10,280 bases of DNA from Candidatus Zixiibacteriota bacterium (GCA_041742355.1 JBGSIV010000053.1:1-10280), one strand, 5' to 3'; counted from the stretch's first letter, positions 1,094 to 7,803 are shown. Numbers and translations are program-made. The notes: generated by a model not told the origin, from the letters alone.

Positions 1094-1863
1094 TACCGTT
1101 CCTCCACCGGCTGCACCGCCACATCCGTCGCCCGCACTTCCGCGAGCACCGAATCCAGCGCCGTCGTCATCACCCGGTACCCCGCTTCGTTCGGGTCGAT
1201 GCCATCCTTTGACAGGTCTTTACGGAGATACCCCTGTTCATCGGCCAGCAGCCGATTGAATTCCACCAGCCGCCACTGGCCCGCCTGCGCTCCGGCACGC
1301 AGCCACTCGTTGAAGACCGCGATACTGTCCATAATCTTGTAGTCCCCCAGGTCCACCACTCCTCTCCGCGGCGGAATCACCGTGCCGAATATCGGCATAA
1401 TCCCATTCGCCCGCGCCAGGTCGGCCATCGACTGCGCGTACTCGCGAATCTCCTCCACCTCCCACTGCTGACGGAAATTGTACGACGAGACCTCGATCAC
1501 CACCGCCCCCGGGCGAAGCGCTATGACATCCGAACGAAATCGCAACAGAAACCCCGCCACCCGTTGTCCTTCGATCCCCCGGTTAACCGCCTCCCACTGC
1601 GGGAACGCCGCCTGCACATCCCATCGCGACACCACCTGTGTCCCCAGAAACACCACGCGCTTCGGCTGCGGCGCTTCTCCCCGGAACGCCTCGTTCGTCG
1701 CCTGGTACCGATGCCGCCCCGAAAACTCCTCCACCACCACCTCGTACTTGTCCAGCCAGTAATTGATGTATGACCGGTACATATAGGCCTTGTACCCGAC
1801 ATACACAATCGTCAGGTTTCCCAGGAGCGACGCCAGCAGAACCAGCTTCATGGTACGGCTCAT
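1093..1863 (-). CDS. Membrane-anchored SGNH/GDSL hydrolase-fold protein with degenerate catalytic motifs (probable pseudo-esterase)
   Basis: N-terminal hydrophobic helix; SGNH blocks recognisable (RVVFLGTQ, VNRGIEGQ, RFRSDVIALRPGAVVI, DGIDPNEAGY); AAGGA Shine-Dalgarno upstream of the ATG. Confidence 0.88.
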   Translation of the reverse strand: MSRTMKLVLLASLLGNLTIVYVGYKAYMYRSYINYWLDKYEVVVEEFSGRHRYQATNEAFRGEAPQPKRVVFLGTQVVSRWDVQAAFPQWEAVNRGIEGQRVAGFLLRFRSDVIALRPGAVVIEVSSYNFRQQWEVEEIREYAQSMADLARANGIMPIFGTVIPPRRGVVDLGDYKIMDSIAVFNEWLRAGAQAGQWRLVEFNRLLADEQGYLRKDLSKDGIDPNEAGYRVMTTALDSVLAEVRATDVAVQPVEER

Positions 1864-1902
1864 CGACAGTCCTTGTCATGCGCGTGATCGTTCTTCCCTC
1901 CA

Positions 1903-1931
1903 ACAATACGCGCCTTCTCCAAACAAGTCAC
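1903..1931 (-). promoter_or_regulatory. Putative sigma70 promoter for the SGNH-GT4 pair
   Basis: Minus strand reads GTGACT-N17-TATTGT, about 40 nt upstream of the ATG at 1863. Confidence 0.4.
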
Positions 1932-2024
1932 TAGCAAAAACTCGTCTGTCCCATATGGTACATGCTCCGCCCGGCGCAATCTCTGCTGATACTCCTTCGC
2001 ACCGTCTATCATCGACCAAAAAAG

Positions 2025-2053
2025 TTGACAACAAACCACGTGTTCCCTATTTT
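2025..2053 (+). promoter_or_regulatory. sigma70-type promoter upstream of the FN3-dockerin gene
   Basis: TTGACA (2025-2030), exactly 17 nt, TATTTT (2048-2053), with an A-tract (UP-like) just upstream; predicted TSS near 2060. Confidence 0.75.
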
Positions 2054-2059
2054 CTCACC

Positions 2060-2301
2060 GTGACTATCAGAGGGGAAAACTGATTAGTCGCCTGCCATCT
2101 GGCAGGGGGTATCAAAGGTGAATAGAATGAATCGCACGGCCCGATCTCTCATGGGACCGACAGGGCCGTACTATACGCATCGCCTATCCCAACGTCCTTT
2201 CTTTGCAAGCGGACCCGGCGCTCGTTGCAAGGCGCCGACTAGTGTCAACCGCCTTGAGTGCTATGCACTGAACCAACCCATCGACCCTGGAGGTTCGCCC
2301 A
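2060..2301 (+). other. Long structured 5' leader (candidate cis-regulatory RNA, class unknown)
   Basis: Successive stems: 2060-2070/2080-2091, 2091-2097/2100-2106, 2136-2142/2163-2169 (extendable by AGGTGA/TCGCCT), 2216-2222/2231-2237, 2257-2261/2265-2269. Confidence 0.35.
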
Positions 2302-2883
2302 ATGAACAGGATGTGGTTGATCGTCTGCCTGACGATCATTGGAGCGACGATGGCGACGGCTTCCTATGGCGCCGACATCACCGTTCTGTGGACCGCGCCC
2401 GGTGATGACGGCAACATCGGCACGGCCAAAGCCTATGAACTGCGCTACCTGAACCAGCGCATCAACGACAAGAACTGGACCCAGGCCACCGTCGTGGCCA
2501 GCGTCCCCGCCCCCATGCCGGCCGGGACCACCCAGTCGTGCACCATCACCAACCTCGACCCCGGACGCAAACTCTACCTCGCCATCCGGGCCGTCGATGA
2601 CGCCGGCAACTGGTCGCTCATCTCCAACAACGCCGTTTGCGCCAACTGCAACTGCCTCGCCAAAACCGGCAACGTCGACAACGACTCCTACGACGCCGTC
2701 ACTGTCGCCGATCTCACCGAACTCGTTGCCTACGTCTTCGGCGGGCAATCGTCCGTCCCCTGTCCCCTCGAGGCTAATATCAGCGGCGACACCGAGGGCA
2801 GCATCGACATTTCCGATGTCAGCGTACTCATTGGGTACCTGTACAAGGACCCTGAAACATACCAGCTGGCTCCGTGCCAGTAA
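2302..2883 (+). CDS. Secreted protein: signal peptide, WTAPGDDG-type fibronectin type III domain (strand A absent), C-terminal dockerin type I-like domain
   Basis: GGAGG Shine-Dalgarno; hydrophobic signal to about residue 23; FN3 features WTAPGDDG...YELRY...ITNLDPGRKLYLAIRAVDDAGNWSLISN; two Ca-binding dockerin-like repeats, GNVDNDSYDAVTVADLTELVAYVF and ANISGDTEGSIDISDVSVLIGYLY. Confidence 0.9.
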   Translation: MNRMWLIVCLTIIGATMATASYGADITVLWTAPGDDGNIGTAKAYELRYLNQRINDKNWTQATVVASVPAPMPAGTTQSCTITNLDPGRKLYLAIRAVDDAGNWSLISNNAVCANCNCLAKTGNVDNDSYDAVTVADLTELVAYVFGGQSSVPCPLEANISGDTEGSIDISDVSVLIGYLYKDPETYQLAPCQ

Positions 2884-3050
2884 ACCACCCGGTCTGACCG
2901 GGAGGGCTGCAGCCACCTCGACTCTACTGCACCGGTACTCCGTCACCGGAGACTCGCCCCTTCTGCTTCTGATCAGGGCCGCGTCGATAAGACCGGCCCC
3001 CGGATGTTGCGCCCACGCCAAGTGAACCGCCTCGAACACTGGATTGATCG

Positions 3051-3066
3051 AGGCACAACCTTTGCA
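3051..3066 (+). promoter_or_regulatory. Putative sigma54 (-24/-12) promoter
   Basis: AGGCACAACCTTTGCA against the consensus TGGCAC-N5-TTGCW, with exact GG-N10-GC spacing; it puts the TSS near 3077, about 24 nt before the ATG at 3101 and upstream of the Shine-Dalgarno. Confidence 0.6.
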
Positions 3067-3100
3067 CGCCGCAAGCGGGTTGCGACAATACGGAGGTTCT

Positions 3101-3919
3101 ATGTTTCTCAACATCACTCATCGGGCCGCACAACGACCCCTGGCCACCCTGACACGCCTTATCGTGACAGCGGTGCTCGCCTTAATCAGCGTCAGTCTCT
3201 TTGCCTCAAACGCGGCCGCCCAGCTGAAAGCCGAAGTCGCCGCCGGCGAAGTCATTCTCAGCTGGACCGCCCCGGGCGACGACGGCAATACCGGCACTGC
3301 CGCCCTCTACGACCTGCGCTATTCGAGAAGCCCCATCACCGCGGCCAACTGGAACGACTGGAACGTCATCGTCGCCGCCCAGAATGAGCCTCGTCCCGCG
3401 GCCGCCGGCACCGTCCAGGAGTACATCCTTACCGACCTCCCCCCCGGCACAACCTACTACTTCGCCATCCGTGCCGGCGACGAAGCCAACAACTGGTCCG
3501 GCCTCTCCAATGTCGTCACGGTGAAAACACCCACCGAGACCGTCCCCCCGGCCGCCATCACTGACCTCAACATCATCAGCACCGGCGACAATTCCGTCAC
3601 GCTCGGATGGACCGCCCCGGGCGACGATGGCACGACCGGTCAGGCCGCACAGTACGAAGTCCGCTACAGCACTTCTCCGATCACCGCCACCAACTGGGCC
3701 GCCGCGACCCTCGTCGCCGATGTCCCGACCCCCAAAGCCCCCGGCTCCCCCGAAACACTGACTGTCGCCAGTCTCCAATCGGGCGTCACCTACTATTTCG
3801 CGGTGAAGACGGCCGACGAAAACCCCAACTGGTCCGCCCTCTCCAATGTCGTCAACAGCATGACCTCGGGAGATACCACGCCGCCGGCCCCGGTAAGTGA
3901 TTTGAGAATTGCCAAGTAA
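3101..3919 (+). CDS. Secreted tandem fibronectin type III (WTAPGDDG) repeat protein with a C-terminal orphan strand-A peptide
   Basis: Start reassigned to ATG 3101 (GGAGGTTCT-ATG); signal peptide ending ...ASNAAA; two FN3 repeats of about 112-115 aa; ends DTTPPAPVSDLRIAK*. Confidence 0.92.
   Translation: MFLNITHRAAQRPLATLTRLIVTAVLALISVSLFASNAAAQLKAEVAAGEVILSWTAPGDDGNTGTAALYDLRYSRSPITAANWNDWNVIVAAQNEPRPAAAGTVQEYILTDLPPGTTYYFAIRAGDEANNWSGLSNVVTVKTPTETVPPAAITDLNIISTGDNSVTLGWTAPGDDGTTGQAAQYEVRYSTSPITATNWAAATLVADVPTPKAPGSPETLTVASLQSGVTYYFAVKTADENPNWSALSNVVNSMTSGDTTPPAPVSDLRIAK
3263..3854 (+). repeat. Internal gene duplication (two FN3 units)
   Basis: TGGACCGCCCCGGGCGACGA at 3263 and 3608; AACTGGTCCG(G/C)CCTCTCCAATGTCGTCA at 3491-3518 and 3827-3854 (27/28 identical). 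Confidence 0.85.
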
Positions 3920-3941
3920 GAATGTCCCCCTGCCCCCACGC

Positions 3942-3959
3942 TGAAGCCCCCCGGCTTCA
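3942..3959 (+). terminator. Small hairpin downstream of the FN3 gene
   Basis: TGAAGCC-CCCC-GGCTTCA followed by TCCTCCTT; the U-tract is weak. Confidence 0.35.
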
Positions 3960-3982
3960 TCCTCCTTATGCGTGAAATGGCG

Positions 3983-4009
3983 ACGGCCCTGTGATCATCA
4001 CAGGGCCGT
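3983..4009. terminator. 13-bp perfect inverted repeat between convergent genes (probable bidirectional terminator)
   Basis: ACGGCCCTGTGAT-C-ATCACAGGGCCGT; overlaps the ligase stop codon at 3998-4000; followed by TGTCTCTTT on the plus strand. Confidence 0.6.
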
Positions 4010-5584
4010 TGTCTCTTTGAGCATCTGCTTGATGACTTTGCCTGATTGATACTTCGGCAGCTCGGCCATGAATCGCACGAACTTCGGCACCTTGTGCACC
4101 GCCAGCCGCGCTTTGCAGTGATCGATCACCATCCGGTCCTCCACCAGCGCCCCCACCTGTGGTACCACCACCGCCACGATCGCTTCCCCGAGCACCGGAT
4201 CCGGCACCCCGAACACCGCCACCTCCGCCACCTGCGGCACCTCGAGGATCGTCTCTTCCACTTCCTTCGCGCTCACCCGGTTGCCGCCGCTCTTGATAAT
4301 CTCTTTTTTCCGCCCCACGATGAATATGAACCCGTCCCGGTCCACCCGCGCCAGGTCCCCCGTGTACAACCACCCGTCGTGGAGGACATCTTCCTCCTCC
4401 GCCTTCTGCTGCCAGTACCCCATCATCACCGAGTCGCCGCCGACAATAATCTCCCCTTCCTGATCCGGCCCGACCTCCCGCCCCTCGGCATCGACCACCC
4501 GCACCAGCACACCCGGTACCGGTATCCCCACCGACCCCAGCTTCGCCCCCAGCTTTTCCGGCGGCAGCCAGGTCACCCTCGGCGAGGCTTCCGTCTGACC
4601 GTACATGATGAAGATCTCCTTCGATGGAAACGCCTCCACCAGCCGACGGATCACCTCCGGCGCCATCGCCCCCCCTGCCTGCGTGAAATACCGCAGATCG
4701 GAAAGGTTCCGCTTCGCGAAGGTCGTGTTGCCCAGGAGAATCATGAAATTCGACGGCACTCCGGAGAACCCCGTCACCCGCTCCCGCTCCATCGTATCGA
4801 GCACCGTTTCCGGATACGTGAACCGGTTGTCGATCACCACCCGTCCGCCGACCGCCACGTGCGTCAGCAGGAGCGAATTGCCGTAAATGTAGTAGAACGG
4901 CAGAATGACGATCACGCTCTCGTGGCAGTTCAACCGGAGGTATTCCACCGTCCCCACCGTGTTCGCGATCAGGTTCCGGTGTGACAGCATCACCCCCTTG
5001 GGCTTGCCTGTGCTCCCCGAGGTATAGAAAATCGCCGCCAGTTCCCGCTCCGCCTCCGGCAGCTTCCCCCACCACAGCGCCAGATCATCCCGCGCCGCCG
5101 GATCGACTCCGCACGGATCGCCCGGTGCATCATCGGCCAGCCCCAGCATCTCGATCATCGCTTCGCTCGGTATCGGCAGCGTCAACCCCACCGTCGGATT
5201 GTCGAAGATCACGAGTTGCAGCGGCGTCGGATCCGCCGTCACGGCCGCCATGTGACGCGCGAACCGCGTCTGTGTGATGAGCACCTTCGCGCCCGAGTCG
5301 GCAATGATGTGCCGGAGCTGCGGCGGGCGGAACGACGTATCCAGCGGCACCAGCACCAGTCCGGCCATCGACACCGCAAAATACCCCACCGCGTACTCGA
5401 TCGAGTTCTCGGCCAGCAACCCCACCCGGTCGCCCGGGTTCAGCCCCAGCGCCTGCAGCCGCGTCGCCAGACGGCACACGTGATCGTGCAGCCGCGCATA
5501 GCTGATCCGGCGATCACCATGGACAACCGCCGGACGATGCCCGTACCGCCCGGCAGTCTCGATCAACAAGTCATGCAACTTCAT
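3998..5584 (-). CDS. ANL-superfamily adenylate-forming enzyme (acyl-CoA/acyl-ACP ligase, AMP-binding)
   Basis: Motifs FYTSGSTGKPKGV (A3), YGQTEA (A5), YTGDLA (A7), GRKKEIIKSGGNRVSAKEVE (A8) and LPKYQSGKV (A10 Lys). Confidence 0.95.
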   Translation of the reverse strand: MKLHDLLIETAGRYGHRPAVVHGDRRISYARLHDHVCRLATRLQALGLNPGDRVGLLAENSIEYAVGYFAVSMAGLVLVPLDTSFRPPQLRHIIADSGAKVLITQTRFARHMAAVTADPTPLQLVIFDNPTVGLTLPIPSEAMIEMLGLADDAPGDPCGVDPAARDDLALWWGKLPEAERELAAIFYTSGSTGKPKGVMLSHRNLIANTVGTVEYLRLNCHESVIVILPFYYIYGNSLLLTHVAVGGRVVIDNRFTYPETVLDTMERERVTGFSGVPSNFMILLGNTTFAKRNLSDLRYFTQAGGAMAPEVIRRLVEAFPSKEIFIMYGQTEASPRVTWLPPEKLGAKLGSVGIPVPGVLVRVVDAEGREVGPDQEGEIIVGGDSVMMGYWQQKAEEEDVLHDGWLYTGDLARVDRDGFIFIVGRKKEIIKSGGNRVSAKEVEETILEVPQVAEVAVFGVPDPVLGEAIVAVVVPQVGALVEDRMVIDHCKARLAVHKVPKFVRFMAELPKYQSGKVIKQMLKETTAL

Positions 5585-5628
5585 ATGGTACTGTCTGCTT
5601 CTCTCCGCAGTGCATGTGAACGAAAAAT

Positions 5629-5735
5629 AGACGAACTCATTGCGACCGCTTGGATACCGTCATAGCAAGCGCCGAGACACCGTCATAGCAGGCGCCGGGA
5701 CACCGTCATTGCAAGCGCCGGGACACCGTCATTGC
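5629..5735 (+). repeat. 23-bp tandem repeat (3 full units, 1 degenerate unit, 1 partial unit)
   Basis: Units at 5652, 5675 and 5698, consensus GGACACCGTCATWGCAAGCGCCG; an in-phase degenerate unit at 5629; the unit at 5721 runs into a REP-like element. Confidence 0.9.
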
Positions 5736-5761
5736 GAGGAGCGTAGCGACGAAGCAATCTC
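5727..5761 (+). repeat. CGTC-tagged palindromic (REP-like) element
   Basis: CGTCATTGCGAGGAGCGTAGCGACGAAGCAATCTC with ATTGC/GCAAT arms; it translates as RHCEERSDEAIS, a widespread extragenic palindrome signature. Confidence 0.75.
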
Positions 5762-5771
5762 TCCTCGTCCG

Positions 5772-5793
5772 GTGGCCCACCATTCATGGTGGG
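5772..5793 (+). repeat. GTGG-tagged REP-like palindrome
   Basis: GTGG-CCCACCAT-TC-ATGGTGGG: a GT(A/G)G tag directly followed by a perfect 8-bp stem. Confidence 0.6.
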
Positions 5794-5800
5794 TTCTTTC

Positions 5801-5861
5801 TGCCACAAACACGCCGTCTTTGTGCCACGGACACCATCAACGTCCCCGTGCCACGGACACC
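5801..5861 (-). repeat. Two overlapping GTGG-tagged REP-like hairpins
   Basis: Minus strand: GTGG-CACGGGGAC-GTTGATG-GTGTCCGTG and GTGG-CACAAAGAC-GGC-GTGTTTGTG; plus-strand direct repeat GTGCCACGGACACC at 5822 and 5848. Confidence 0.55.
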
Positions 5862-5863
5862 CC

Positions 5864-6868
5864 CTACCGCCGCTCCACCGGCACTTCCAGCGGATTCATC
5901 CGAAGATACTCGGTCGCCTCGATCTTCCGCCGAATCGCCTTGTACCCGCGTTCCACCTGCTCCGGCGTCAGATCGAGCACCCCGGCCGCCTCCGCCGCCG
6001 GCACTCCGTGCTCCATCGCGTACCAGAGCATGTCCATCGTGTAGAAGTTCAACCCGAAAAAGAACTCTTCCTGCGTCTGCTCAGAGCTGTACGTATCCGT
6101 CGTCGGCGTGCGATCGATAATCTCCTGCGGCACCCCGAGGTACTCCGCCAACTGGTATACCTGCGTCTTGAACAGGTGCGCGATCGGCTTCAGATCCGCG
6201 CCCCCGTCTCCCCACTTCACGAAAAACCCCTGCTCGTGCTCATCCTTGTTCCCCGTCCCGACCACCGCCCAGTTGCGCTTCTCCGCATGGTAGTACAACG
6301 TCGTCATCCGCAGCCGCTGCTTCAGGTTCGACGCCGCCACCACCTGCAGGTACACCGACATCGGCATCCGGCGGCTGTGCCACTGCCCCTGCGGATCCTC
6401 GATATTGAGCGTGAAGTAGTTGAACGACTGGTCTTCCAGCACGTTTGTTGGAATCACGATCTTGCACTTGTACGACGCATCGAACTCCGGAAACACCTCC
6501 CGGATCGCCTCGTCCCGGCGCTCGTAACACCGCATCCCGCTCAATCCGGCCGTCAGCACCTCTTCGGTCGTCTCAAAACCAAACCTCTCCGCCAGCTTCA
6601 GCGCGAGCTGCTTGCTCACCGGCGACGAGTCCTGCTCGGGCATCATGATCCCAATCACCCGCTGCGGCCCCAGCGCTTTCGCGCACAGCGCCACGACCAC
6701 CGACGAATCGATCCCGCCGGAAACGCCGACCACCGCGCCGCGCTTCTTCATCTTCACGCCGATCTGCTCCGCGATCACCTGGCACAGATTCCCGGCCACT
6801 TTCTCCGCATCGATCTTCAGGCTGTCTTTGGTGAATTTCACCGCCGTATCCTCTAGTTTGACCTTCAT
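5864..6868 (-). CDS. nadE: NH3-dependent NAD+ synthetase family protein (long form with central insertion); alternative start GTG at 6841
   Basis: PP-loop VVGVSGGIDSSVV; SNLKQRLRM; VVGTGNKDE; GFFVKWGDG; DLKPIAHLFKTQVYQLAEYLGVP; RTPTTD. No glutaminase domain. GAGGA precedes the GTG at 6841. Confidence 0.9.
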   Translation of the reverse strand: MKVKLEDTAVKFTKDSLKIDAEKVAGNLCQVIAEQIGVKMKKRGAVVGVSGGIDSSVVVALCAKALGPQRVIGIMMPEQDSSPVSKQLALKLAERFGFETTEEVLTAGLSGMRCYERRDEAIREVFPEFDASYKCKIVIPTNVLEDQSFNYFTLNIEDPQGQWHSRRMPMSVYLQVVAASNLKQRLRMTTLYYHAEKRNWAVVGTGNKDEHEQGFFVKWGDGGADLKPIAHLFKTQVYQLAEYLGVPQEIIDRTPTTDTYSSEQTQEEFFFGLNFYTMDMLWYAMEHGVPAAEAAGVLDLTPEQVERGYKAIRRKIEATEYLRMNPLEVPVERR

Positions 6869-6945: not shown

Positions 6946-7803
6946 TCAGAACACCGGCGCCCCCACCGCCGGCGAATAGGCGTACCAGATTTTCAGCCGA
7001 CGGCCGCTCCCCTCCCCGGCTGCCCCGTCAACCCGAAGCAGCGCAAACGTCTTGTCCTCCGTCATCACCTGCACCCAGTCCCCCGCCTTCACCGCCACCC
7101 GGTCCTCCCCCGGCAGCGACGACAGCTTGGCCATCTCCGCCGTCACTTCCCCGTACTCCCCCCGAAACGGCAGCAGCCGAAACCGCGTCCTCCGCAGGAA
7201 ACCGAGCTGGTTCGGCGACCCGAGGTAGTCCTTCCCGTCAAGGGCGTAGTAGTACAGATCATTATCGACATTGTCCGCCCGGACATAGCCGTCCCGCGCG
7301 AAAGAAAATCCATCCTGCTCCCCCTTGTACCGCACCGCCAGATCCATAACGCCCCGGGGTCCGGGCACAATCAGAAGTTCCTCCGACGGCGCCGACAGAG
7401 ACCGGTCAGCAAACACCGTCCGGACATGCACGTAGTACGGCACGCCGTCCGAGAGCCCTTCCGCTTCATAAACCTCAACCCCGTCTTCCGGGTTCGTATC
7501 CCCCGGAAAGACCGGCTGGTTCCACGGCGTCACCTCGGCCGGAAGCACCGTCCCCGGATAGGCCGTAACCAGCGGCTCGCGGCTCACGTAAATGTTGTAG
7601 CCCGATGTCAGCACCGTGCAGTCGGCCTTGAACCTGACCAGCGCCCTGCCGGCCTCGACCTCGACTGCCACGTTATACGGCACGCACAGATCAACCCGTG
7701 AGACCAAAGGGGCTTCCGGCGCCTCTTCTCCAGGTTTCGGCCCAGTCCCGCCGCACCCGGCCACCACCAGTCCAAGCAGGATCGTCAACAGCATTCGTTT
7801 CAT
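6946..7803 (-). CDS. Lipoprotein with an FN3-like N-terminal domain, function unknown
   Basis: The likely start is ATG 7803, overlapping the peptidase TGA (ATGA); MKRMLLTILLGLVVAGC lipobox (Cys17); FN3-like pattern GYNIYVS...EGLSDGVPYYVHVRTV...SAPSEE. Confidence 0.88.
   Translation of the reverse strand: MKRMLLTILLGLVVAGCGGTGPKPGEEAPEAPLVSRVDLCVPYNVAVEVEAGRALVRFKADCTVLTSGYNIYVSREPLVTAYPGTVLPAEVTPWNQPVFPGDTNPEDGVEVYEAEGLSDGVPYYVHVRTVFADRSLSAPSEELLIVPGPRGVMDLAVRYKGEQDGFSFARDGYVRADNVDNDLYYYALDGKDYLGSPNQLGFLRRTRFRLLPFRGEYGEVTAEMAKLSSLPGEDRVAVKAGDWVQVMTEDKTFALLRVDGAAGEGSGRRLKIWYAYSPAVGAPVF

Follow-up and report, generated by a model that had tools for sequence, protein, structure and literature searches.

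A conserved FN3 gene pair of a Candidatus Zixiibacteriota bacterium: a candidate plug-and-socket join between a free C-terminal arm and an incomplete FN3 domain

Introduction

Why should a secreted protein end in a second copy of the peptide that opens one of its own FN3 domains, with no domain after it, while the neighbouring gene encodes an FN3 domain that lacks this very peptide? The question is raised by two genes on a stretch of 10,280 nucleotides (hereafter the window), which is the whole contig C53 of genome G000, a 93.8% complete genome of a Candidatus Zixiibacteriota bacterium, the group to which most named homologues of the pair belong. An initial annotation had proposed that the C-terminal peptide of the second protein (P0002) completes the FN3 domain of the first (P0001) in trans, or else chains subunits head to tail into a filament that is capped and tethered by the dockerin-bearing P0001. 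We here assess both readings by means of homologues, gene neighbourhoods, structure models and known systems. FN3 domains that follow the signal peptide without their N-terminal arm are referred to as headless, and free arms at the C-terminus as tails.

Results

Gene pair and gene ends

The two genes are co-oriented, flanked by unrelated genes on the opposite strand, and each preceded by a GGAGG ribosome site (Table 1). Sigma70-like sites, scored as consensus matches only, number 3 in positions 1850-4100 against 0.4 in shuffles. Between the P0002 stop and a convergent acyl-CoA ligase gene lie two hairpins (z scores of -5.2 and -7.2), which form a probable terminator. RNA runs shared only 5-8% of the sequence words.

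Table 1. Features of the gene pair, in positions of the window
Feature	Position	Strand	Basis
Sigma70-like promoter candidate, TTGACA-17-TATTTT, upstream of gene 2302	2025..2053	+	consensus match only
Candidate socket/anchor gene P0001, 193 aa: signal peptide, headless FN3, dockerin-like module	2302..2883	+	
P0001 signal peptide, residues 1-23	2302..2370	+	cleavage site placed by eye from sequence and homologues
P0001 FN3 without arm and without strand A; predicted Ca ligands D35, D36 (WTAPGDD loop) and D99 (F-G loop) kept	2371..2649	+	
Cysteine-framed dockerin-like module of P0001	2659..2880	+	own-genome HMM, homologue PF00404 matches
Candidate plug/extender gene P0002, 272 aa: signal peptide, arm-less FN3-1, complete FN3-2, free C-terminal arm	3101..3919	+	
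P0002 FN3-1; L42 and beta strand A (43-47) kept, D-x-x-PP-x-x-I-x-D arm absent; D60, D61, D127 kept	3221..3529	+	
P0002 FN3-2, complete, with own arm ETVPPAAITDL (146-156); predicted Ca ligands E146, V148 carbonyl, D175, D176, D239	3536..3862	+	
Free C-terminal arm of P0002, DTTPPAPVSDLRIAK (258-272), predicted plug; D258 predicted Ca ligand in trans	3872..3916	+	
Two hairpins, 3942-3959 and 3979-4013, between P0002 stop and convergent acyl-CoA ligase gene	3942..4013	.	z scores

The peptides and coordinates of the initial annotation were correct: ETVPPAAITDLNIIS starts the complete FN3-2 from residue 146 (nucleotide 3536), and DTTPPAPVSDLRIAK, residues 258-272, directly precedes the TAA with no domain after it. 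Its remark that the last codons of P0002 are AT-rich also holds, with a GC3 of 3/8 in the last 8 codons against 0.82 in the gene body. In run X4, which belongs to a different study, a contig covers positions 3578-3950 including tail and stop, with 19 substitutions and 0 gaps, and run X1, possibly from the same source as the window DNA, covers the stretch with 0 differences. The orthologues of P0002 in G002 and G003 stop at most one residue from the same place, so that the stop is retained in orthologues at about 50-65% identity. Truncation or mis-assembly of P0002 is ruled out by the conserved stop, the independent X4 contig and the hairpins 3' of the stop. The end of P0002 is confirmed as real, and the C-terminal peptide is neither a chance occurrence nor an assembly fault.

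Domain anatomy of the two proteins

The FN3 domains of the pair score 30.3 and 57.2 bits with PF00041 (cut-off 25), and the top matches in fold searches were FN3 domains, with Z up to 9.1, an rmsd of 2.1 over 80 aligned residues, and Foldseek E-values of about 1e-10. Both proteins carry predicted signal peptides, pointing to export by Sec.

In P0001 (30.3 bits), the PF00041 match begins at profile position 15 and the domain starts at strand B, which agrees with the earlier description of an FN3 opening at strand B after the signal peptide; D35, D36 and D99 are invariant in 17/17 aligned rows of P0001 homologues. The dockerin of that description can be retained as dockerin-like: the PF00404 profile gave no direct match to the P0001 module but matched 8 of the 17 aligned homologues, and the module was found with E=1.1e-11 by an own-genome dockerin HMM, built from 20 C-termini of dockerin-hit ORFs of which at least one was a wrongly included CTD. 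Whereas G000 contains 63 PF00404 matches, the search for cohesins suggested by the initial annotation returned 0 PF00963 matches at E<=0.001 among 12 candidates in this 93.8% complete genome; the best candidate (E 0.0017) covered part of the profile only and lay below the cut-off.

For P0002, the AF2 model has a mean pLDDT of 90.4. In it, the PPxxIxDL segment of FN3-2 forms an extended, non-beta arm ahead of strand A, strand A proper comprises residues 157-161, L42 of FN3-1 sits at about the position of the arm Leu, and the tail is in no beta sheet. As modelled, the conserved peptide therefore comprises the N-terminal FN3 arm and the first part of strand A, and not strand A only. The 'free strand A' of the initial annotation is thus indeed an FN3-derived N-terminal peptide, but mostly the arm before strand A, and FN3-1, described there as keeping a partial strand A, does lack the arm but has a beta strand A at 43-47 in the AF2 model. 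Many tailed proteins, P0002 included, retain their own Leu and strand A, which would be rivals to a tail arriving from another chain.

Conservation of the terminal arm

Homologues were taken from the listed matches of three length-limited searches (best 120 of 1575, 53/53 and 55/55), a set biased towards the queries, and the 220 listed proteins were sorted by regular expression into 165 with a headless domain after the signal peptide, 28 with a complete first FN3, and 27 ambiguous ones; the wider FN3 repeat family comprises 3393 representatives at E<=1e-30. The arm, D-x-x-P-P-x-x-I-x-D-L, is terminal in 81 of the 88 listed homologues that stop 15-40 residues after the last F-G loop. The survey proposed in the initial annotation thus recovered a conserved arm-ending stop among the matches listed, and its counter-case of a merely truncated copy was not seen. 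Among the listed matches, 63 of 92 terminal motifs end at most 8 residues past the Leu, although some tails extend for 40-55 poorly conserved residues. The same arm-ending stop occurs in proteins with one, two and three FN3 domains, in DUF11 proteins, in other cargos and in phage genes.

The 165 listed headless homologues end in the arm (87), a T9SS/FlgD-like CTD (55), a dockerin (13) or otherwise (10), such that 87 of the 97 listed headless proteins without CTD or dockerin have the tail. The 10 other endings are fragments and a few misclassified proteins. One, two or three FN3 domains precede the tail in 26, 4 and 57 of the listed headless proteins, and at least 26 proteins consist only of a signal peptide, one headless FN3 and the tail. 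Among the 28 listed homologues with a complete first FN3, 5 have a tail, 1 a CTD and 22 neither; lipoproteins in this group often stop right after strand G, and the tail is rare there. No tail was found in the 150 top-scoring long FN3 arrays (0/150). As headless first domains are the family norm and also occur in many tail-less proteins, any plug-and-socket arrangement would belong to the family as a whole and not to one dedicated pair.

In viruses, a one-domain headless gene with tail is present in at least 8 of 15 loci, the gene having been missed by ORF picking in four loci, and PHROG searches matched generic tail-fibre FN3 only. A DNA pattern for the arm had 33 matches in 10 genomes against 2 for its reversed control.

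In the matches listed, terminal arms with [PAS]P (n=78) have Asp at the first position in 78/78 and the last Leu in 97%, compared with 22% D and 75% E at the first position and 92% Leu in internal arms (n=218); terminal arms are no less conserved than internal ones. The argument that terminal arms are more conserved than internal arms and hence have a special function is weakened by the CTD proteins, in which D-type arms typically precede the last FN3 as well. From such D-type arms the invariant first Asp of the tails may have been inherited. One arm stands directly before a CTD with no FN3 in between (L191/L203).

A probable split calcium site

In a cryo-EM preprint (10.1101/2025.10.18.683246), the FnIII-like domain of CLCA1 binds an ion, 'presumably Ca2+', via D749, the F751 carbonyl, D778, D779 and D848, with spacings by residue number of 25 (D749-T774), 4 (T774-D778) and 10 (D848-N858). 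The corresponding spacings in P0002 FN3-2, mapped by the residue numbers in the preprint instead of an alignment or coordinates, are identical (E146-T171 25, T171-D175 4, D239-N249 10), but the first loop Asp and the F-G Asp lie 64 positions apart (D175-D239), versus 70 in CLCA1. The relationship to CLCA1 rests on a partial match to TIGR00868, the animal CLCA family, whose FN3 part is matched by P0001 and P0002 (positions 751-861, E=4e-20), and on CLCA clusters among the nearest Atlas models (TM 0.80-0.82); PDB sequence and fold searches returned generic FN3s only, with no CLCA1 entry listed.

Of the five CLCA1-type Ca2+ ligands, two are in the arm and three outside it; these three are retained by headless domains, and the arm Asp is retained by free tails. 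In the 165 listed headless first domains, the loop pair is DD in 156 and DN in 9, and the F-G Asp is present in 161. By analogy with CLCA1, joining the arm to a headless domain probably completes a split calcium site.

Structure models of the join

The heterodimer with insertion of the C-terminal peptide, as suggested by the initial annotation, was modelled with ESMFold2 for mature P0002 (41-272) and P0001 (24-117), without Ca and alongside 3 controls. The pair scored 0.78 and the best of the 3 controls 0.12; the pass mark, which 116 of 157 solved pairs but only 2 of 215 mismatched ones attain, is a rough one, as own alignments were used. Runs agreed in at least 96% of contacts, with a partner pLDDT of at least 86 that dropped to 66 when chain 1 was replaced. 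In the modelled interface, residues 257-272 and 228 of P0002 face residues 26-31, 33-38, 93-99 and 103-113 of P0001, with L268 and V265 on W30 and P262 on D99, and the tail is placed in the P0001 groove even though the arm-less head of P0002 itself is present. Since the halves of split domains tend to pass by their likeness to intact solved domains, the model shows fit, not binding.

Fold-back of the tail was not seen in two AF2 monomer models, as judged by DSSP, pLDDT and aligned ranges, so that this counter-case of the initial annotation finds no counterpart in the monomer models; the tail of the one-domain protein P0149 adopts no strand structure and is aligned to linkers that leave solved FN3s. 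On the other counter-case, a strand-A-less domain that is stable alone, AF2 folds a headless domain alone with high confidence, which counts against the join. According to PMC4330816, strands A and G are the last to pack in FN3 domains and are mobile, in keeping with an N-terminal element that can detach.

Tails on FN3-less proteins and gene neighbourhoods

The only other clear terminal arm in G000 belongs to a secreted DUF11 protein without FN3 (C39:7146-7706), encoded about 6 kb from a headless five-FN3-CTD gene. DUF11 homologues were found in 14 of 41 genomes. Of 22 loci taken, one had no match; among the 21 scored, 11 have a CTD at the end, 6 a dockerin and 4 the arm, followed in one case by 46 further residues. 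As the endings interchange, the arm takes the place of an export or anchor module, and these tails have no FN3 on their own chain to complete. Fused forms of the type cargo-arm-FN3-CTD are common, suggesting an origin of the system by fission at the arm.

Tailed genes are immediate neighbours of headless anchor genes in G000, G002, G003 and G026, and the dockerin-then-tail pair is kept in 3 of the 4 genomes of the genus (G000, G002 and G003, not G001; locus L005, which carries G003 proteins, was left out of the count). From a class search of 121 genomes, 20 regions with FN3-dockerin or short FN3 matches were picked, i.e. chosen and not sampled. A tailed gene directly adjoins a headless anchor gene in 9 of them, two being dockerin-tail-CTD triads, and L246 and L247 repeat the gene order of the window; 4 (L243-L245, L248) have a tailed gene without anchor neighbour, one more has a variant tail, and 6 (L250-L255) have anchor genes without tailed neighbour. 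Tailed genes without anchor neighbour also occur in phage loci, and most FN3-dockerin genes in a separate set of 20 regions have no tailed FN3 neighbour. The co-occurrence anticipated by the initial annotation is therefore partial: tailed genes recur beside headless anchor genes, but many anchors stand without a tailed neighbour. An obligate two-gene pair is ruled out by its absence in G001 and by the many FN3-dockerin genes without tailed neighbour. With any of the three endings, DUF11 genes are close to FN3 genes, so that proximity is not specific to the tail; for this reason, and because the regions were chosen, the neighbourhood counts are suggestive and not a statistic.

Discussion

Completion of the neighbour's FN3 in trans, as first proposed, is supported by the conserved stop, by the monomer and complex models and by the recurrent headless-anchor neighbours. 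We consider it likely that the peptide acts as a plug-and-socket tether in trans, in which a split calcium-binding FN3 hangs anchor-less proteins on dockerin- or CTD-bearing ones. Of its elements, the anatomy of the proteins, its conservation, the gene neighbourhood and the interchange of three C-terminal modules are shown. The probable split calcium site, the tail on FN3-less proteins and the self-complementary one-domain forms go beyond the initial annotation. After export of both proteins by Sec, which their signal peptides imply, the free arm of P0002 would settle on another chain, in this case P0001, by filling the groove left empty where its headless FN3 begins, at an interface that is modelled, with Pro262, Val265 and Leu268 packing on the strand-B Trp30 and the F-G region. 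Following the arrangement in CLCA1, Asp258 and the carbonyl two residues on would complete a Ca2+ site with Asp35, Asp36 and Asp99 of the socket; calcium would thereby lock the join, which would be non-covalent, form in the cell, and recreate the junction between covalent FN3 repeats. In this way the anchor-less stalk P0002, or else a tail-bearing cargo such as a DUF11 protein, would be hung on a partner with a dockerin or a T9SS-like CTD. As P0002 has both an arm-less head and a tail, it could also serve as an extender in short chains.

Head-plus-tail proteins might polymerise head to tail into long FN3 fibres that are ended and tethered by dockerin or CTD proteins, a reading that overlaps the tether and that we regard as rather unlikely. 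The pilin-like layout of the at least 26 proteins with one headless FN3 and a tail speaks for such fibres, as does the one-domain form in at least 8 of 15 viral loci; strand G and the arm are joined by a linker of a few residues, which on geometric grounds is too short for the arm to reach its own groove in register, and Ca-reinforced, chaperone-free donor-strand polymerisation exists in archaeal cannulae (PMC12518558). However, the head of P0002 keeps L42 and strand A and is thus a poorer socket than P0001, and DUF11 carriers cannot polymerise at all. Long filaments are best motivated for the one-domain forms. DUF11 carriers equally oppose completion within one type of chain, by closed swapped dimers or rings or by fold-back (circular permutation) in multi-domain members, with the dockerin neighbour being incidental: they bear the tail without any FN3. 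Such completion would account for the coupling of head and tail in one polypeptide (87 of 97 listed headless proteins without CTD or dockerin) and for the tailed genes without anchor neighbour, and N-terminal strand swapping of an FN3 scaffold is known from PDB 4m6a. We judge it improbable, given that fold-back is absent from the monomer models, that the modelled tail chose P0001 with its own head present, and that tailed genes recur beside anchor genes.

The tail might also be a sorting or processing signal that is read by another machine, like the CTD or the dockerin, with FN3 arm ancestry and nothing more. It occupies the same position as these modules in DUF11 proteins as well as FN3 proteins, and lipoproteins, with their lipid anchor, seldom carry it; yet it keeps exactly those residues predicted to pack on FN3 and to bind Ca2+, the matching ligands are kept by the headless domains, and the model docks it on a headless FN3, which makes this account quite improbable in our view. 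Finally, tailed proteins could be relics, i.e. shortened FN3-CTD arrays that stop after the arm, with headless domains folding without it. The resemblance of the tail to the D-type arm of the last FN3 in CTD proteins, the long variable extensions on some tails, the arm before a CTD without FN3, the AT-rich last codons of P0002 and the folding of headless domains alone by AF2 are what one would expect of relics, whereas the same stop across one-, two- and three-FN3, DUF11, other cargo and phage proteins, the 63 of 92 listed tails that end within 8 residues of the Leu, the conservation of terminal arms at no less than that of internal ones, and the retention of the stop by orthologues at about 50-65% identity are not; this account is already disfavoured and in our estimate very improbable.

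Beyond the tether, it is possible, and here put forward tentatively, that Zixibacteria and related phyla use the arm as a general C-terminal address, a third one next to the dockerin and the T9SS-like CTD. Cargo, extender and anchor proteins would then be joined through Ca sites shared by two chains, into modular stalks or self-growing FN3 fibres, while the minimal, self-complementary subunits of phages would polymerise or occupy host sockets. If the tether is true, it is a natural, portable, calcium-switched tag-and-catcher of about 12-15 residues on a very common fold. It would then explain many 'FN3 domain-containing' proteins that seem truncated at both ends, show a surface route for proteins without export or anchor domain in uncultured Zixibacteria and their relatives, and offer an EDTA-reversible tool for protein coupling.

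Several known systems resemble parts of this arrangement. Cohesin-dockerin scaffolds share with the present case the dockerin-like module on P0001 and the PF00404 matches in G000, but differ in that no PF00963 cohesin scored above the cut-off in this genome. Chaperone-usher pili have an N-terminal donor extension, lack the last strand, and have chaperone and usher genes in the cluster, whereas here the donor is C-terminal and the missing element N-terminal. Type V pili are made of lipoprotein precursors that are matured by a protease, with a two-domain pilin fold and a C-terminal donor; the donor is C-terminal here as well, but neither mature N-terminus has a lipobox Cys, and the fold is FN3. 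No chaperone, usher or lipoprotein-pilin layout was found among the listed ORFs of the window or the 8 that were scanned. Like these pili and the CPR Pam pili (PMC13278184), the system has an incomplete Ig-like sandwich that would be completed by a peptide of another chain, and anchor or terminator subunits; it differs in the FN3 fold, in the missing element, which is the N-terminal arm with strand A, and in that the tag is also found on unrelated cargo.

The archaeal cannulae formed by CanA assemble by donor-strand complementation without a chaperone, with Ca2+ reinforcing the contact between subunits (PMC12518558), as is predicted here; however, theirs is an N-terminal donor strand in an archaeal, tubular homopolymer, as opposed to a C-terminal, Pro-rich arm, an FN3 fold and mixed cargo and anchor partners. 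A natural trans-complementation of an incomplete Ig-like domain is that of obscurin-like-1 Ig3 by the myomesin My4-My5 linker (PMC5222588; PDB 5fm5), which concerns a eukaryotic Ig domain, an internal linker and one specific pair, and not a portable terminal tag. The CLCA1 domain belongs to the same FN3 subfamily and, in the preprint, builds its site likewise from an arm Asp, an arm carbonyl, the DD loop and the F-G Asp, but with arm and domain in one chain, whereas here the arm ends one protein and the rest starts another. In Tencon, a strand-swapped FN3 (PDB 4m6a), strand A is exchangeable between chains as proposed here, but the protein is engineered.

A mechanism akin to donor-strand complementation is suggested by the anatomy and by the model (0.78 vs 0.12 for the best control). 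A full-text literature search, which covered few subscription papers, returned no description of such a split-FN3 tag/socket system and no literature on Zixibacteria with dockerin, fibronectin or type IX secretion, or on calcium-linked FN3 strand complementation in trans. The pair is real and conserved, and is probably a plug-and-socket in trans with a split calcium site, a variant of donor-strand complementation not described in the literature searched.

SpyTag/SpyCatcher is an engineered, covalent tag-and-catcher; PDB entries 4mls and 4mli of this system were among the PDB search matches. It shares the tag-and-catcher logic with the pair described here, which is natural, and probably non-covalent and Ca-dependent.

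Tailed and candidate socket proteins beyond the window

Contig C39 of the same genome (locus L001) encodes a secreted DUF11 protein (7146-7706) that ends in a free arm, the C-terminal D-x-x-P-P-x-x-I-x-D-L peptide, as does the tailed two-FN3 protein P0002 of the window; among homologues of the DUF11 protein, a dockerin or a T9SS-like C-terminal domain (CTD) takes the place of the arm. Further along the contig (13871-15949), a protein with five FN3s, the first armless, carries a T9SS-type sorting domain (TIGR04183 match above cut-off) and is another candidate socket in this genome. Complete, armed FN3s of the P0001/P0002 family were seen in three of its lipoproteins (C98:10914-12239, C304:36990-38291 and C121:53437-54732), followed by apparent leucine-rich repeats.

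The same logic is found beyond Zixibacteria, in the three-gene clusters of loci L055 and L058, where a headless two-FN3 protein with arm and extension lies between two headless FN3-CTD proteins.

In viral locus L082 (6001-6399) and others among L083-L095, a phage gene encodes a signal peptide, one FN3 and the arm; in L082 this gene is flanked by tail genes on one side and, on the other, by one with a tail-lysozyme family match. A protein of genome G108 (L244) shares both ends with this phage protein, which suggests a prophage.

Dockerins and cohesins

The whole genome was found to contain 63 PF00404 dockerin matches and no PF00963 cohesin above cut-off. Segments ahead of the arm in L202:3966-5738 and L203:3992-5851 resemble cohesin by eye; a Pfam search of them gave no cohesin match.

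Genomic setting and relation to CLCA

The enzyme-coding stretches listed below are probably part of an exopolysaccharide locus; polysaccharide genes also surround L202 and L203. On the plus strand C exceeds G throughout the window (cumulative skew -16), in agreement with G-rich third positions in minus-strand genes.

Other features of the window
Feature	Position	Remark
Glycosyltransferase-like DNA	1-1090	
GDSL hydrolase	1093-1863	
Acyl-CoA ligase (AMP-binding) and NAD-synthase-like genes	3998-6868	
Short tandem repeats (~21 nt) and REP-like palindromic stretch	5676-5740 and 5810-5860	Between ligase and NAD-synthase-like genes

The FN3s of P0001 (2371-2649) and P0002 (3221-3862) belong to one subfamily with the C-terminal FN3 of CLCA proteins from animals, a tie between CLCA and a bacterial repeat.
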